Shown: one piece after another, positions 22,788-31,691 of the stretch
Position numbering within the stretch: position 1 is the first letter of the stretch
Layout: each line of letters begins with the position of its first letter
NCBI GenBank assembly: GCA_010093605.1
Contig: MU004181.1
Span: 1,612,001 to 1,676,000 of the forward strand
Reading direction: 5' to 3'
Source of the DNA: Lophium mytilinum
Taxonomy: Eukaryota
DNA: 64,000 nt
Program-made: the position numbers and the translations under genes
The notes under the pieces: model-generated
Told to the model about the DNA's origin: nothing
What the model saw: only the letters and a program-made list of their open reading frames with translations
Databases searched by the model: none

Positions 22788-24772
22788 TCATCTTATCCAA
22801 AAGTCCTCATATTCTTCTTCGCCAGCTTCGACGGCCCGAACGGCCTCACCACGCATGGTCCGAGGAACGTATGCTTCTCCGAGCAGAATGTACTGATCCC
22901 CTTCTTGCCGAAGTACGACAGGAACTGTGCATCCTCGAAGCACACAAAGCTTGTCTCCGGGCGCAACATCTTCCGGGCCTAATCCACATTCTCCATGAAT
23001 GTGTCCTTGAATGTACCGGACTTCAGGATTCGGGCTTGGTTTCATCGTCGCCGGCATGAAATAGAACATACTGCGGTGAAAGTGTATGGACATAAGGTTG
23101 TCGATCAGATGAGGGTTATATTCCGCCTGGCAGTTTTGCAAGCTCCCACTGCCATCAGCGTGCAACCAGCTCGCCAGCTCCGAAAGTGTTGGTCCCCTCG
23201 GTTCTAGCCAGAACGCGGCGATGAATCCAAGCGTGCTCGGATACTCTGACAACAAATTGAATGACTGCCATGCCAATCTAAAATGAGCCATCCAAATCTT
23301 GAAGTCTAGATCCGCCGTGGGCTTATCTAAAACGAAGAGTTCATTGCCAACGTTGCGAGGAGGGGAAGAAAATGATGGTGCCGTGGCTTCAATGGTCGCG
23401 ACCGTCTTTCCTCTGACATGAAGCACTGTACCATCTTCAGTAAAATCAAGGACACTTGGAAGAGATCCTCCGGCGCACCAGTCCCCTGGATTCTTGTCTT
23501 CTATAGCACTAATAGTACCTAGAGTCCTGCTAGAAACTGTCGTAGGTTCCATCAACGACCAAACCCACGAAGGTATTCCATACTTAGGGTCGTAACCCAT
23601 TCGGGGGCCGAGAAGCATGTCCAATCCTTCTTCTTGTATCAGTAGACGCATCATGGAATTGATGACTTCAGGTAGTGTCTTTGAGTAGTCCACTTGGATT
23701 TGCTGTCGAATAGAAGGATGGAAACAACTGTAGTAGCCAAAAACCTTGTCTCTTCGATCCGTAGAACGCTTCAGCTGTGCCGAACGCCACTGTCGCAAGC
23801 TCAGGTGTTTACCATTCCTTGCTGCCCCGCGAGCTGGTATGACTTCATCAATCATCAGGTTTGTTGAATGCGCCAGAGTTGCCAATAAGTAGGTTTCCGG
23901 ATCTACCGAGCTCTGCGGTATGGCTTCCACGTCTTTGGGTGACTTTGCGAAGACAGCGCATATTTCTCGCATACAGGCGAAGAATTCATCGTAGCCAAGA
24001 GTATGTTGACCATACATTAGAAGCGCTTTATCAGAGAAGAGGATCTCCTGGACGACCCAGATTCTCTTCCAGTATTCTAGCTTAAAGATACGATTCATCA
24101 TGCTCAGGATCCCCCTCTTGACACTAGTGTTTTGAGTAGTGAATCCTGTTCGCCATACGAGTCGATCAGTCTCTGTGAGCTCAGAATAAGACTTCAAAAG
24201 CTCGAATGTGAGACTTATCAGGTCGTCTGTCGCCTCACCCAGCCAGATCAGCGTTGATGTTGCGTTCGCATAGACATCAGACATCATTTTGACTTGTTCA
24301 TTGCGCTCTTCTATGTGAGTCTGATTGATTGCTACGGCATCGGCCCAAACCACGCGAAAGCTTTCTGAGAGGCGAAGGCGCGACAGAGCGGAATGCAGGT
24401 TTGACGTGACATGCCAAGTGACTTCGTCGAGGAGTATGGTTTTAGGTTCATTCTGACTGCCCCCTATGATGTACTTAGCGCCTACATCTAATGAAGTTAA
24501 AGCTACACATACTTACAAACATATGACAAAGCCTCATAGTCTGGTAGGTCTCCATCATGGACACTGAAACTCGAGCATTTAACTACACTTGGCTCGGCTC
24601 CAGGGTGAATCTTGATCAGACGGAGCTCCCTGCTCGCAAGCTGTTTTCTGTAAACCGTTTTTGCAGCATCCGAGTTCAGTTCTCCGAGTGTAGCTACGAG
24701 CTTTGGTGCTGATACTGGCTGTTTTGGAGATGCACTGCAAGCCGGCTCAACAGAATCCAGCTCTTGCTCCAT
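22788..24772 (-). CDS. HET-domain heterokaryon incompatibility protein (HET-6-like)
   Basis: LRLIKIHPG, YEALSYVWG (across intron 24464-24516), WADAVAINQ..ERNEQV..M..VY..A, WLG, YWKRIWVVQE, TDRRDKVFG, PSWV, GDKLCVLRGC..PVVLR..LLGEAYV..MRGE. Confidence 0.93.
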
Positions 24773-27571: not shown

Positions 27572-29835
27572 TACGTGCAAATCTGTAACTGAAGCTGCAG
27601 TTGGATATATTGCTGGATGCACGGCTGTTGGTACGGCGGCATAGACGTCCTCGTTGCGACGCCAGACCTGAATCTGGTGCCAGAGCTGCTCGTTGGCACT
27701 GGGTAGTTCTTTGAGGTTGGCTTCTAGGAAATCAGGGGGAGGGCGGGCAGCGGGAGAAAGCAATGATAGTGGCTGGTTGTCTGGGAGCTGTCCAAGTCTA
27801 TCACTTAAAGTGTAGTGTATTCTAAGGAGGCATAGAAGCCGTTCCGCTGTTGTTTTGATAGCAAATGTCGAGTGGTCGACATTCTTGGTCTCTTGGAGGG
27901 CGTGGACGAGGGTTTCTGGGTATAAGCCGGCTCCTACCCTAGCATTTGCGATTGCTCTGACAACTAGAGATAGTCGGGATTGGTTCGGGATGGATGTGGT
28001 CTGGTATAGAAGAAGGTCATCCGAGAGCCGGTTGATGTACTCAACTGTCCAGTACCAGAGCTCCGTTACTACCTCCTCGTTGCAGGCGGTGCTTCTTGCG
28101 AATAGATCATACCAATCGCCTGAGTCAATAGTGGCTGCAATAGTGTGGAGTTGACGGTATAAAACAGCTTCGTCTATACCGTGGAAGATCTGGTCTATAA
28201 CCGCGACATCCGACGATAATGGCGTTCCAGCTGTGGCTTCCTGTACAAATGTTCTCATGTCTTCTCCGTTGCGCTGTAGGTCTAACAGAAAGTCTGCACT
28301 CTGCCGCATTAGGGTTTCGAGGGTTATTTGGATGTCTTCAAGTGGTGGCCATGTCGGCATTGTGCACGCGTTTGGAGTATGTCGGGGGAGTCGCCACGTT
28401 GGGCTGCGGTGTGATATTTCCGAAGGTGAACAAATGTCAACAGCGATGGTCGCAATGTTGAATATTACAATGTATATGTTGTACTGCGCCCTGAGTGCAA
28501 CTTCGGCCACGGTGAAGCACCAAATATCTTCGTCTGTCGTAGGATCCTGAGGCCCTTGGATAATCTACCCGTATGCGAGGGGGTTGAATGAAACGTGTAG
28601 TTGTTCTACAGGCGTAACAGTAGTGAGCTTGTCCCATGCTCACTCATATTGTCGTCTATCGAAATCGAGGAAATCTGTTGGGTGACGAGACATGCGTTCG
28701 TGTAGTAGCTCGAGGAAGGTGTTACCAGAGAGAAGGGATTTAATGGTGATATTCGAGTTGAGAATCATAAATTCCGCGGAGCCTGCATTGCCCAAGGGAC
28801 TAGTCATATTTGCGGTGCTTGCAATAGTCACGACGTCCCGGTATTCTGCAAGGATACCTCCGTCTAAAACACCCTGCACTGCTGATTGTTCAGATACAGT
28901 CTTAACGATATGCTTGCGCTCTGCAGGACTCGTTGACTTCCCCAACGCCTCTTCCACTTGCTTGAAATTGATTCTGCATGTTTCTTCGTTTACTTCGTGT
29001 AGCCGGACCAGGTGCGTCGTGATTAATGAGGCGGCCATCTCGGTTGGTAGGTGTTGGCGTTTGTTCGTTGCACCCAACTTCTCGCAGACTAGGCACTGAT
29101 GCGTCATCGTGGAGACGAGACGCTACGCGATGTTATGAATTGCTTTGGACTTGGAGGTAGTTGAGGGCTTACTGCGGCGCGGGGCTGTGAATTGCTGTAG
29201 ACTTGGGGTGATGAAGGGCTGGTAGCGGCGCAGCCTCGTGAATTGCGGCTCTCGGTTGCTTCTTGCAGTTGTTGCAGGCGAACAATCACTAATTTCGCTG
29301 CATCATCAGGCGCTATCCAGGTGTTGTTCTTCGGGGAATGAATCCGTCGCAAGAGTTGTAGCGGGAGGTCATGATGGATATGGATAAGCGGGGGGTAGGC
29401 GTATGGCTACGCGCTACGACAGGGCGGACGAGGCTGCAAAGCGACGCGGAGTAAATTGATCGAAGTGGTTCCCGGTGTGAGCCGTTGCCTATGCCGCGAC
29501 ACTTCACCAATGGTTGGTCTACCGATTACCGGAGTATCCGGCATTCGAATAACGATAATGAAGGGTCTCAAAGGATAAAAACCTGAGTTCAAAACATGCG
29601 TGTGGTGATGAGTGTTGGTAAACGTGCACTGAAGTCCCCGCCTCTAGCGAGGCCCATTACCCACCTGCAGCTTTCGTGGACCACAAAAAAGCGGAGACAC
29701 TAAGCGGCGCACCAAGCGTTCTTTGCATGTGAAATCCTGCAAGTTTCACAGCATGGGTGTACAGGAAAGTGCAAGTAGCAGTGTGAGTGCTATAGAATAT
29801 ATACTCAAAAATTGATACATTCCTTAACAACAACA

Positions 29836-29982
29836 TCCTTGATGGTCTAGTGGTCATGATTTCCGCTTGTCAAAGCAGTCTGCTTAACAAGCGCGGGAGA
29901 GTAAGCAACCACCGCAGCCATTGCCTGATTATCAATCATGCTAACGGATGTCACAGCCAGGGTTCGATTCCCTGTCAGGGAG
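29836..29982 (+). tRNA. tRNA-Asp(GTC) with a canonical 19-nt intron and a 56-nt spliceosome-type intron
   Basis: Acceptor stem TCCTTGA/TCAGGGA with G73; anticodon stem TCCGC/GCGGG, GTC at 29869-71; intron 29873-29891; T arm CAGGG-TTCGATT-CCCTG; insert 29901-29956; T5 terminator at 29992-96. Confidence 0.92.
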
Positions 29983-30686
29983 TAATTATTCTTTTTGCAT
30001 TTTGATTCAATTTTTTGATTCGACTCTTATAGAGTGGTGGGAAGGCTGGGTCCATGAAACCTGGACAGGCAGTGGGCTTTTGGGGTCTGTAGGGTCTCTA
30101 GGAAGCATGTTTTAGGGCACGTTTTTCTTTTTCTATGCTTATTTGCACTGAGGAATCGAATTTCACACTGCTTTGTCTCGAGTCATGGTTGTTGCATGAT
30201 GGGCACGCTTGATGAGTTTCAGACGCAACACTTAGTGTCTGATCCCACAATAAGTTCTACACTGGAAGGCTGCAATGTACACAGAAAGACAAAGAATGTA
30301 TCGAAGTTCGCAGGTCGTCATAGTGACTATCAGATCGGGCCGCCCATGAGACACCTCGCTTTTCTTTCTATGTATGGAATAGACTGATGCAGGATCTGAC
30401 CCCACCCGCTCACGTCGATTGTGGCGACGGAGGAAAGACTTTTCAGCATCCTGATATAGAGACAAACACATGCAAAGTTGGTTTGTAAAACGTTTTTTAA
30501 AAAAACTGCTTTTGGACGTGCAGGGAGATTTTGGTGGTTTCGAGGAAAGAACTTCGCTGCTCCACCGAGAACTTCGCCAACACTCTAGGGTAGGTATTAA
30601 GCAAGTATTGAAGCATACCATCTCAAGGCTAGTGAACATGCAGCCCTAAGCTTATACTTTCGCAGAAAGCAACACCTACCTCTACG

Positions 30687-31691
30687 ATGAATTCCAACGC
30701 CCACAACTCAGGGCCTACGGCTCATACCTCGGCCCCGACGCCTGCCAACAAATCAACGTCATCGCAGCTGTTCACACTGCAGTCCATCCCAGGGCAAGGT
30801 AAAGGTCTGGTCGCTTCACGTGCTATCACCCCGGGCACGCTCTTGATCAGCGAAGCCCCCCTCTTCGCCATCCCCTCCGCAGCCAGCGAGCGCGATCTAG
30901 CAGCGCACCTTCGGACTCTCCCCAAAGAATCCCAACGCGCCTTTCTCTCTTTGCACAATTCGCGTGCCGGCGCTGGAGAGCCGCTATCCAACATCGTCCG
31001 CACGAATGCGTACCCCCTCGGTCCTGGGAGGGACCTTGGGGGCATCTTTCCACTCATCGCCCGCATCAACCACAGCTGTCGTCCGAATGCGCAGCACGCG
31101 TGGAATGGGAACGACGGGGAAGAGACTGTGTATTCGGTGCGTGAGATCAAGGAGGGCGAGCAGCTCTCGTTGTCGTACCATGAAGGAGGACCATCGAGCG
31201 AGCGGCGGAAAGCTCTGAAGGAGTTTTTTGGCTTTGATTGCACGTGTGAGATGTGCGAGATGCCGAAGGATCAGCTTGCCACGAGTGATGAGCGACTAAG
31301 GCGGGCGAAGGTATTGGATAAGGCGATTGGGGAAGCCAAGCGCGTGCGTATGACGCCGGAGGACGCGTTGAGGGATTGCAGGGAGCTGGTAAGGATCTAT
31401 GAGGAGGAACGAATTGCCGACCTTAGGGTACCGAGGTTGTACTATGACGCGTTTCAAATTTGCGCAATGCATTCTGATAAAGCACGAGCGAAGGTGTTTG
31501 CTAAGAGGAGCCTTGAAGCACGGTTGATGTGTGAAGGGGAGAAGAGCGAGGAGGCGGAGGTAATGGCGGGACTAGTGAAGGATCCGGCAAATTTTGAGAA
31601 TTTTGGGACGACGAAGAAGTGGAAGATGGAGAAGGTGCCTGTAGGGCTTGATGAAGTTGAATTTGAGAAGTGGCTGTGGAGGGAGATGTAG
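30687..31691 (+). CDS. SET-domain lysine methyltransferase (SET5/SMYD-like)
   Basis: GKGLVA..I..GTLL, RINHSCRPN, EGEQLSLSY, FGFDCTCEMC post-SET motif, helical C terminus. Confidence 0.93.
   Translation: MNSNAHNSGPTAHTSAPTPANKSTSSQLFTLQSIPGQGKGLVASRAITPGTLLISEAPLFAIPSAASERDLAAHLRTLPKESQRAFLSLHNSRAGAGEPLSNIVRTNAYPLGPGRDLGGIFPLIARINHSCRPNAQHAWNGNDGEETVYSVREIKEGEQLSLSYHEGGPSSERRKALKEFFGFDCTCEMCEMPKDQLATSDERLRRAKVLDKAIGEAKRVRMTPEDALRDCRELVRIYEEERIADLRVPRLYYDAFQICAMHSDKARAKVFAKRSLEARLMCEGEKSEEAEVMAGLVKDPANFENFGTTKKWKMEKVPVGLDEVEFEKWLWREM

Follow-up and report, generated by a model that had tools for sequence, protein, structure and literature searches.

A spliceosomal-type intron in the variable loop of a fungal tRNA-Asp gene, and comparable GT..AG inserts in other tRNA-Asp genes

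The tRNA-Asp gene and its surroundings

The window (the whole stretch of 64,000 nucleotides analysed here) carries on its plus strand, at 29836-29982, a complete tRNA-Asp(GTC) gene that can be read directly as three exon pieces separated by two introns. The parts of the gene and the elements next to it are as follows.

29791-29804, plus strand: TATA-like A/T stretch 32-45 nt upstream of the tRNA start, a possible upstream promoter element
29836-29872, plus strand: exon 1, tRNA positions 1-37, acceptor 5' strand and D arm (Rfam RF00005, ARAGORN)
29843-29853, plus strand: A box, within exon 1 (sequence feature)
29869-29871, plus strand: anticodon GTC, within exon 1
29873-29891, plus strand: canonical 19-nt tRNA intron at 37/38 (direct reading, ARAGORN, fold)
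29892-29900, plus strand: exon 2, positions 38-46, comprising the 3' strand of the anticodon stem and the first part of the variable loop (sequence, template scoring)
29901-29956, plus strand: 56-nt spliceosomal-type intron between positions 46 and 48, in the variable loop (sequence and X3 contigs)
29901-29906, plus strand: 5' splice site GTAAGC of the 56-nt intron (sequence)
29940-29945, plus strand: branch motif GCTAAC of the 56-nt intron; the branch A at 29944 lies 12 nt from the 3' end of the intron
29954-29956, plus strand: 3' splice site CAG of the 56-nt intron (sequence)
29957-29982, plus strand: exon 3, positions 48-73, comprising the T arm, the 3' strand of the acceptor stem and the discriminator G (Rfam, ARAGORN)
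29961-29971, plus strand: B box, within exon 3 (11/11 match)
29992-29996, plus strand: T5 run, terminator-like for Pol III, 10 nt past the gene end (sequence)
30011-30016, plus strand: T6 run downstream of the T5 run (sequence)

The shorter intron has the features of a canonical tRNA intron, given that it lies at 37/38, is short, and ends in ACAAG, which is complementary to CTTGT of the anticodon loop. Both direct reading and ARAGORN (after removal of the longer insert) recovered it as the separate 19-nt intron described in the initial annotation. The 56-nt insert begins with GTRAGY, carries CTRAY near its 3' end and ends in YAG, as a U2-type intron does, and rough arithmetic puts the chance that a random 56-mer combines GTRAGY, CTRAY 9-12 nt before the end and YAG at less than 1e-6. 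Its size had been said to match the mRNA introns of the window, and this agrees with the 50 and 76 nt of two neighbouring mRNA introns that were confirmed in RNA (see below).

In the ARAGORN drawing, the stems of the gene are fully paired except for one U-U in the D stem. The acceptor stem specific to this copy is TCCTTGA/TCAGGGA. The elements G73, GUC, C38 and G10-U25, which we take from work in yeast to be the identity elements of tRNA-Asp, are all present. The B box (11/11) and the T5 terminator at 29992-29996 had been reported as intact and were found to be so. The distance from A to B box is stretched to about 107 nt, and we counted this against the reading of the locus as a working gene.

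It had been suggested that standard tRNA scanners could miss or misclassify such genes, and this was the case here. The gene went undetected by ARAGORN without introns, and a default-filter Rfam scan of the whole window gave no match, while ARAGORN with introns misread it as carrying a single 70-nt intron and a 9-nt variable loop. Under permissive filters, the Rfam tRNA model (RF00005) matched the gene at 33.2 bits (threshold, 29) over model positions 1-71 of 71, taking both introns as insertions. To place the longer insert, every deletion of 20-199 nt in the 3' half was scored against a tRNA-Asp template with a maximum of 36. Deleting 29901-29956 was the single best placement, scoring 36/36 versus 15 without removal, and no shifted 56-nt deletion was equivalent. 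The Rfam match and this unique best deletion, together with direct reading, uphold the initial annotation of a GTAAGC..GCTAAC..CAG insert of 56 nt in the variable loop of a tRNA-Asp gene. After removal of 29901-29956 in silico, ARAGORN reported tRNA-Asp(gtc) with a 19-nt intron.

The ARAGORN alternative, in which 29873-29942 forms one 70-nt canonical intron, was rejected; it would require an anticodon stem of 4 bp that contains a C-A mismatch, together with a variable loop of 9 nt, and the 29900|29957 junction in the X3 contigs also contradicts it. The fold of the 147-nt precursor was not unusually stable (z -1.43). We also screened for split tRNAs by removing in silico every GT..branch..AG candidate in the window and the metagenome loci described below (291 in all) and rerunning ARAGORN. 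This yielded 24 tRNAs across a join, all within Asp genes that were already known; 18 were typed as Asp, and 6/24 were mistyped (Thr, Leu, Phe) through another intron placement. No further split tRNA beyond the known Asp genes was found among these 291 candidates.

The gene downstream of the tRNA encodes a SET-domain protein (Pfam) with its ATG at 30687. Elsewhere in the window, a long open reading frame on the minus strand (22788-24512) contains a HET (heterokaryon incompatibility) domain by Pfam, which is typical of filamentous ascomycetes, and its Atlas neighbours are Ascomycota. The window has 52% G+C and many short GT..CTAAC..AG candidates, which together with the HET reading frame fits a filamentous ascomycete.

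RNA-derived contigs and the exon junction

Contigs of three sequencing runs were compared over 29150-30650: X1 and X2, which are DNA from one sample that may have supplied the window sequence, and X3, whose record is not labelled as RNA. We took X3 to be RNA-derived because two neighbouring mRNA introns, one on each side of the tRNA gene, are removed in its contigs.

29123-29172, minus strand: 50-nt GT..AG intron of the upstream minus-strand gene (X3 record 15)
30590-30665, plus strand: 76-nt GT..AG intron in the 5' UTR of the downstream SET-domain gene (X3 record 17)

Record 17 follows the window up to 30589, and its loose end is identical to 30666-30695, so that 76 nt of the form GTAGGT..CAG are skipped; in record 15, the aligned part ends at 29173 and the loose end agrees in every letter with 29093-29122, which leaves out 50 nt of the form GTAAGC..TAG.

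The 56-nt insert was absent from X3 in the same manner. Record 17, which has the unique 3' flank of this locus, contains 11 letters equal to 29890-29900 and then continues directly with 29957 to 30589. Record 16, which has the 5' flank of a paralogue, runs through 29834-29900 and then directly through 29957-29975; it retains the 19-nt intron, and the 56-nt insert is gone. The X3 depth over 29901-29956 was zero, and the DNA contigs of X1 and X2 contain these positions. Records 16 and 17 share an overlap of 30 letters, which is what adjacent unitigs built with a word size of 31 would show, and jointly contain all 30 possible 31-letter words across 29900|29957. The two sides of the junction measure 19 and 11 letters, below the 31-letter criterion for a bridging record, and no joint was tabulated; the junction evidence consists of assembled contigs of one run. 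In these contigs, 29901-29956 is removed exactly from RNA in which the tRNA intron is still present. A spliced junction in RNA had been proposed as a check in the initial annotation, and records 16 and 17 show such a junction, joining 29900 to 29957 both at this locus and at the paralogue.

The contigs that carry the junction extend well beyond the gene. At the paralogue, the junction contig reaches at least 261 nt upstream of the tRNA gene, and at this locus it covers 633 nt downstream, through the T5 run and into the spliced mRNA of the SET gene. The RNAs in the X3 junction contigs are therefore probably Pol II-type transcripts rather than classical pre-tRNAs. The contig at this locus (depth, 348) passes from the tRNA exon junction through the T5 and T6 runs and is then spliced at 30589|30666 into the SET-domain gene. 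Either the 5' UTR of the SET mRNA measures at least about 700 nt and begins inside or upstream of the tRNA gene, or there is read-through from the tRNA; the contig is no proof of one molecule. On the upstream side, X3 cover ends near 29610 and is absent from there up to the tRNA gene (29611-29833).

Depth in the DNA runs suggested that the gene is present in more than one copy. The DNA piece 29848-29975 (128 nt, with both introns) had a depth of 379 in X1 and 287 in X2 compared to 119-165 for the single-copy flanks, which implies that both introns are present in identical form in about two to three copies of the gene. A second locus has other flanks, its own T-run and two letters different on each side of the acceptor stem; its differences at position 6 and the partner position 67, as deduced from piece boundaries, fit a compensatory pair. 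The 5' part, 29842-29877, reached a depth of 527 in X1, implying at least one further copy that diverges inside the tRNA intron.

Inserts among metagenome tRNA-Asp genes

A search of metagenome contigs for the exact exon flanks of the window gene with a 40-70-nt gap gave 0 matches. A second pattern, keyed on the 5' half of tRNA-Asp alone and blind to the 3' half, returned at least 115 metagenome loci, so that the sample comprises tRNA-Asp genes with an intact 5' half only. Together with the window gene, 112 of 116 sequences could be parsed, and the remaining four (L011, L029, L073 and L113) run off the ends of their contigs. Of the 111 parsable loci among the matches listed, 26 carry a second insert, 49-60 nt long, at seven sites other than that of the window gene; 85 of the 112 parsed sequences (matches listed plus window) have the canonical intron only, or none. 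The 27 insert-bearing sequences (26 loci among the matches listed plus the window) represent 21 distinct genes, and the 20 loci whose names are shown lie on contigs under 15 different record-name prefixes. The distinct sequences are distributed over the insert sites as follows, for the matches listed and, at 46/48, the window.

45/46: 4 distinct sequences
46/48: 1 distinct sequence, the window only
49/50: 2 distinct sequences
52/53: 3 distinct sequences
53/54: 1 distinct sequence
58/59: 5 distinct sequences
60/61: 1 distinct sequence
61/62: 4 distinct sequences

The apparent restriction of the inserts to the 3' third is partly an artefact because the design of the query excludes inserts in positions 9-45. 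Three of the loci with a second intron (L059, L081 and L098) also have unusually long canonical introns of 44-47 nt, giving genes of about 170 nt.

The inserts share splice signals. Among the matches listed plus the window, a GT..AG placement was possible in 27/27 inserts, each with 1-4 equivalent placements. Over the 21 distinct inserts, the 5' site reads G in 21, T in 21, A in 12 with G in 8 and C in 1, A in 19 with C in 2, G in 19 with A in 2, and T in 15 with C in 6, and the last three letters are CAG in 12, TAG in 6 and AAG in 3. CTRAY stands 9-12 nt before the 3' end in 23 of the 27, with variants in L015 and in L022, L066 and L097. As a control, we examined 75 distinct canonical introns among the matches listed: 2/75 start with GT, 69/75 end with AG, and 1/75 does both. 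The frequent AG ending of canonical introns arises because their 3' end pairs with the anticodon loop, and ACAAG was the commonest ending (28/75). The proposal of a spliceosome-type intron beside a normal tRNA intron is thus supported by the X3 contig junctions and, independently, by 20 further distinct tRNA-Asp genes with intact exons that have GT..AG inserts and branch signals at seven other sites among the matches listed. The insert of the window gene itself showed no clear homology to the others, its best match being 67% (L024) versus a shuffle maximum of 63%, where shuffling destroys the shared splice signals.

We compared the exons with the inserts that they flank. Once the insert was removed, the template score was 36/36 in 22 of 27 genes (matches listed plus window) and 35/36 in L022, L066 and L097; L067 scored 33/36 with a degenerate T loop and may be a decaying member of the insert-bearing class. 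Between pairs with an insert at the same site among the matches listed, the inserts are 49-83% identical and the flanks unrelated, and the mature sequences are 86-100% identical; in the nine pairs with the most similar inserts (59-83%), the mature sequence is 100% identical in eight. Splicing in silico gave the exact mature sequence of at least one ordinary gene for 16 of 22 distinct insert-bearing loci among the matches listed. Ordinary copies with the same mature sequence co-occur with insert-bearing ones, and the latter could be dispensable for this reason. One mature type, with acceptor TCCTCAA and T stem CCAGG, was seen only with inserts among the matches listed: in L046 at 60/61, in L059/L081 at 53/54 and in L063 at 61/62. 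For this type, introns could have been gained repeatedly within a single lineage, or the lineage could be one where every copy has an intron.

The putative transcription signals were retained as well. Among the matches listed, a run of T4 or longer lies at most 30 nt downstream in 19/21 insert-bearing genes compared to 68/69 ordinary genes, and the best contiguous B-box match was 8-11 of 11 with T-arm introns included. CATCAA, often as CCATCAA, occurs within 60 nt upstream of 10/22 insert-bearing genes, with 0.7 expected from shuffles, and of 30/69 ordinary genes, with 1.9 expected (both among the matches listed). The motif, which may be an upstream promoter or start-site element, is absent upstream of the window copy, which has the TATA-like stretch instead; in the source genome, the paralogue does have it in its 5' flank. 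Runs of T5 or longer were found in 0/21 inserts versus 8/128 pattern-matched background candidates in the window, a difference in the expected direction that was not significant. Judged from sequence comparison, such conservation of exons, terminators and upstream motif speaks for genes that are long-lived and expressed rather than for dead copies.

Interpretation, rival explanations and known systems

We consider it likely that the window contains a working nuclear tRNA-Asp(GUC) gene of a filamentous ascomycete with two introns of different kinds, the 56-nt one being removed by the spliceosome. The splice signals, the size of the insert and the exact junction together point to the spliceosome as the agent of removal. 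The gene would belong to a widespread class, given that about one-quarter of the related metagenome tRNA-Asp genes among the matches listed have an intron of this kind, with eight sites in all from position 45 to position 62. The most likely reading of this class is that of functional fungal tRNA genes that depend on the spliceosome as well as on the tRNA endonuclease.

In the pathway that we propose, Pol III would most likely produce the primary transcript, using the A and B boxes, which are both intact, and would stop at the T5 run. The spliceosome would excise the 56-nt GT..AG intron from the variable loop, and only then could the T arm and variable loop fold and RNase P and RNase Z trim the ends. 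The 19-nt intron at 37/38 would be removed last, by the tRNA splicing endonuclease with ligation through Trl1/Tpt1. RNA that lacks the insert and keeps the 37/38 intron fits an order in which the spliceosome acts before end processing, followed by the endonuclease and ligase. In this scheme, the polymerase, the order of the later steps and the functional tRNA product are what we infer. A bolder proposal, to which we give somewhat less than an even chance, is that fungi have a sizeable group of tRNA genes, hitherto overlooked, in which the Pol III transcripts have to go through the spliceosome before folding and end processing, and in which introns arose many times, with eight sites in tRNA-Asp alone. 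If this is true, every tRNA-Asp copy in some lineages may carry a spliceosomal intron, the supply of tRNA would be tied to the capacity for splicing, and gene counts from standard tRNA annotation would be too low.

We considered two explanations in which the insert is spliced from RNA and the Pol III pathway is not involved. The gene could lie within a longer unit transcribed by Pol II, here one that extends into the SET-gene mRNA; its intron would then be excised like that of any Pol II transcript, and any tRNA would be released by RNase P and RNase Z. Both X3 junction contigs reach far past the gene (at least 261 nt 5' at the paralogue and 633 nt 3' here), and the 3' contig, at a depth of 348, passes the T5 run into spliced SET mRNA, as this explanation predicts; the lack of X3 cover over 29611-29833 was also counted in its favor. 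However, a contig spanning two genes does not prove one molecule, long-RNA libraries would show such transcripts only and miss Pol III precursors, and the T-run terminators, A box, B box and upstream CATCAA are retained as in ordinary tRNA genes, and we regard this explanation as rather unlikely. We find it somewhat less probable still that the gene is a pseudogene inactivated by insertion, with the insert spliced by chance from read-through Pol II transcripts, no functional tRNA made, and ordinary copies supplying tRNA-Asp. Ordinary copies with an identical mature sequence do co-occur, L067 does have a degenerate T loop, and D- and T-arm insertions in eukaryotic tRNA genes are generally taken to mark pseudogenes, according to the available part of PMC4090602. 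An inactivated copy does not account for 21 distinct genes at 8 sites, of which 22/27 sequences score 36/36 after removal (matches listed plus window), nor for exons that stayed conserved while the inserts diverged towards random similarity. GT..AG is kept in all distinct inserts and the branch signals are conserved (CTRAY in 23/27, variants in the rest; matches listed plus window), terminators and upstream motif are kept, and the TCCTCAA mature type was found in insert-bearing form only, at three sites, among the matches listed.

In two further explanations, the X3 junction does not come from the spliceosome. If the DNA of the X3 organism simply lacked the insert, the X3 junction would not come from splicing, and the organism label of X3 does differ from that of X1 and X2. 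We hold this to be very improbable, given that there were 0 differences over 438 + 633 = 1,071 compared letters, that the insert would have to be absent precisely from GT to AG at two loci, that X3 contigs are also spliced at two other introns, and that the comparative evidence is independent of X3. Alternatively, the insert could be a non-canonical tRNA intron cut at a bulge-helix-bulge, as in Cyanidioschyzon, nucleomorphs and archaea, or 29873-29942 could be one 70-nt intron. Elsewhere, there are tRNA genes that have several introns, with sites in the variable loop and the T arm, as described in the accessible text of PMC4090602, and ARAGORN proposes the 70-nt reading. Against this, no bulge-helix-bulge was predicted at 29900/29901 or 29956/29957 in the minimum-energy and centroid folds of the 147-nt precursor (one folding prediction). 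GT..AG in 21/21 distinct inserts together with branch signals would be unexpected for endonuclease substrates, since canonical introns start with GT in 2/75 (among the matches listed), and the X3 contig that lacks the insert still holds the endonuclease-type intron. Removal by a tRNA endonuclease is thus extremely unlikely, and spliceosomal removal from a working tRNA-Asp gene remains our preferred reading.

This reading would have several consequences. Spliceosomal introns and tRNA introns are treated as unrelated classes with separate substrates in the available portion of PMC12530127, and a tRNA gene that needs both machineries breaks this separation. A tRNA would join the short list of non-coding RNAs that host spliceosomal introns, and many independent insertion sites in a 72-nt RNA would allow hypotheses of intron gain to be tested, among them the reverse splicing of introns into RNAs that are abundant. 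Counts of fungal tRNA genes are probably too low, given that three scanner settings missed or misread the window gene. It also becomes a testable question whether the spliceosome acts routinely on Pol III transcripts other than U6. Our literature search, in which subscription journals lay mostly outside coverage, returned no description of spliceosomal introns in tRNA genes. To our knowledge, textbook accounts of tRNA processing do not describe a spliceosomal intron in a tRNA gene either.

Collectively, our findings can be set beside three known systems. In eukaryotes, nuclear tRNA introns lie between 37 and 38 and are removed by a protein endonuclease, as stated in the available sections of "The life and times of a tRNA" (PMC10275265). 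The 19-nt intron of the window gene resembles these canonical introns, which are handled by the SEN endonuclease and ligase in the same sections, in its position, its length range and its pairing with the anticodon loop. In contrast, the 56-nt insert lies at 46/48, starts with GT, carries a branch motif and is gone from RNA that retains the canonical intron.

The second comparison is with multi-intron tRNA genes of the bulge-helix-bulge type. Eukaryotic tRNA genes with D- or T-arm insertions are taken as pseudogenes, and the exceptions named in the accessible portion of PMC4090602 are nucleomorphs and Cyanidioschyzon, with introns of the endonuclease type. The bulge-helix-bulge tRNAs that the same portion describes in Thermoproteales, DPANN archaea, Cyanidioschyzon merolae and nucleomorphs share with the window class the presence of more than one intron per gene and the tendency to be missed by scanners. 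As far as that text goes, the variable-loop and T-arm sites 45/46 and 53/54 are also common to bulge-helix-bulge introns and the fungal class. The two differ in what defines the intron: RNA structure recognized by a protein endonuclease in the former, and GT, branch and AG signals in the fungal inserts.

The third system is that of spliceosomal introns in small non-coding RNA genes. The available text of PMC5855946 names as hosts the U6 snRNA genes of fission yeast and other fungi, together with U2, U5 and U1 snRNA genes and rRNA genes, with tRNA not among the hosts named there, and its fission-yeast U6 snRNA gene is a precedent for a spliceosomal intron in a Pol III gene. As far as these introns are described there, U6-type snRNA introns are like that of the window gene in being short GT..AG introns with a branch signal in a small, structured non-coding RNA gene with Pol III-type promoter elements, and like the window class in their lineage-variable presence and several independent insertion sites. 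Unlike the U6-type hosts as portrayed in that text, the window gene is a tRNA that needs a second, unrelated splicing pathway for its 37/38 intron, and the spliced molecules of the tRNA-Asp gene were seen in long transcripts that look like those of Pol II. In summary, the inserts form a recurrent class in fungal tRNA-Asp genes, larger than one gene, that falls under spliceosomal introns in non-coding RNA genes.
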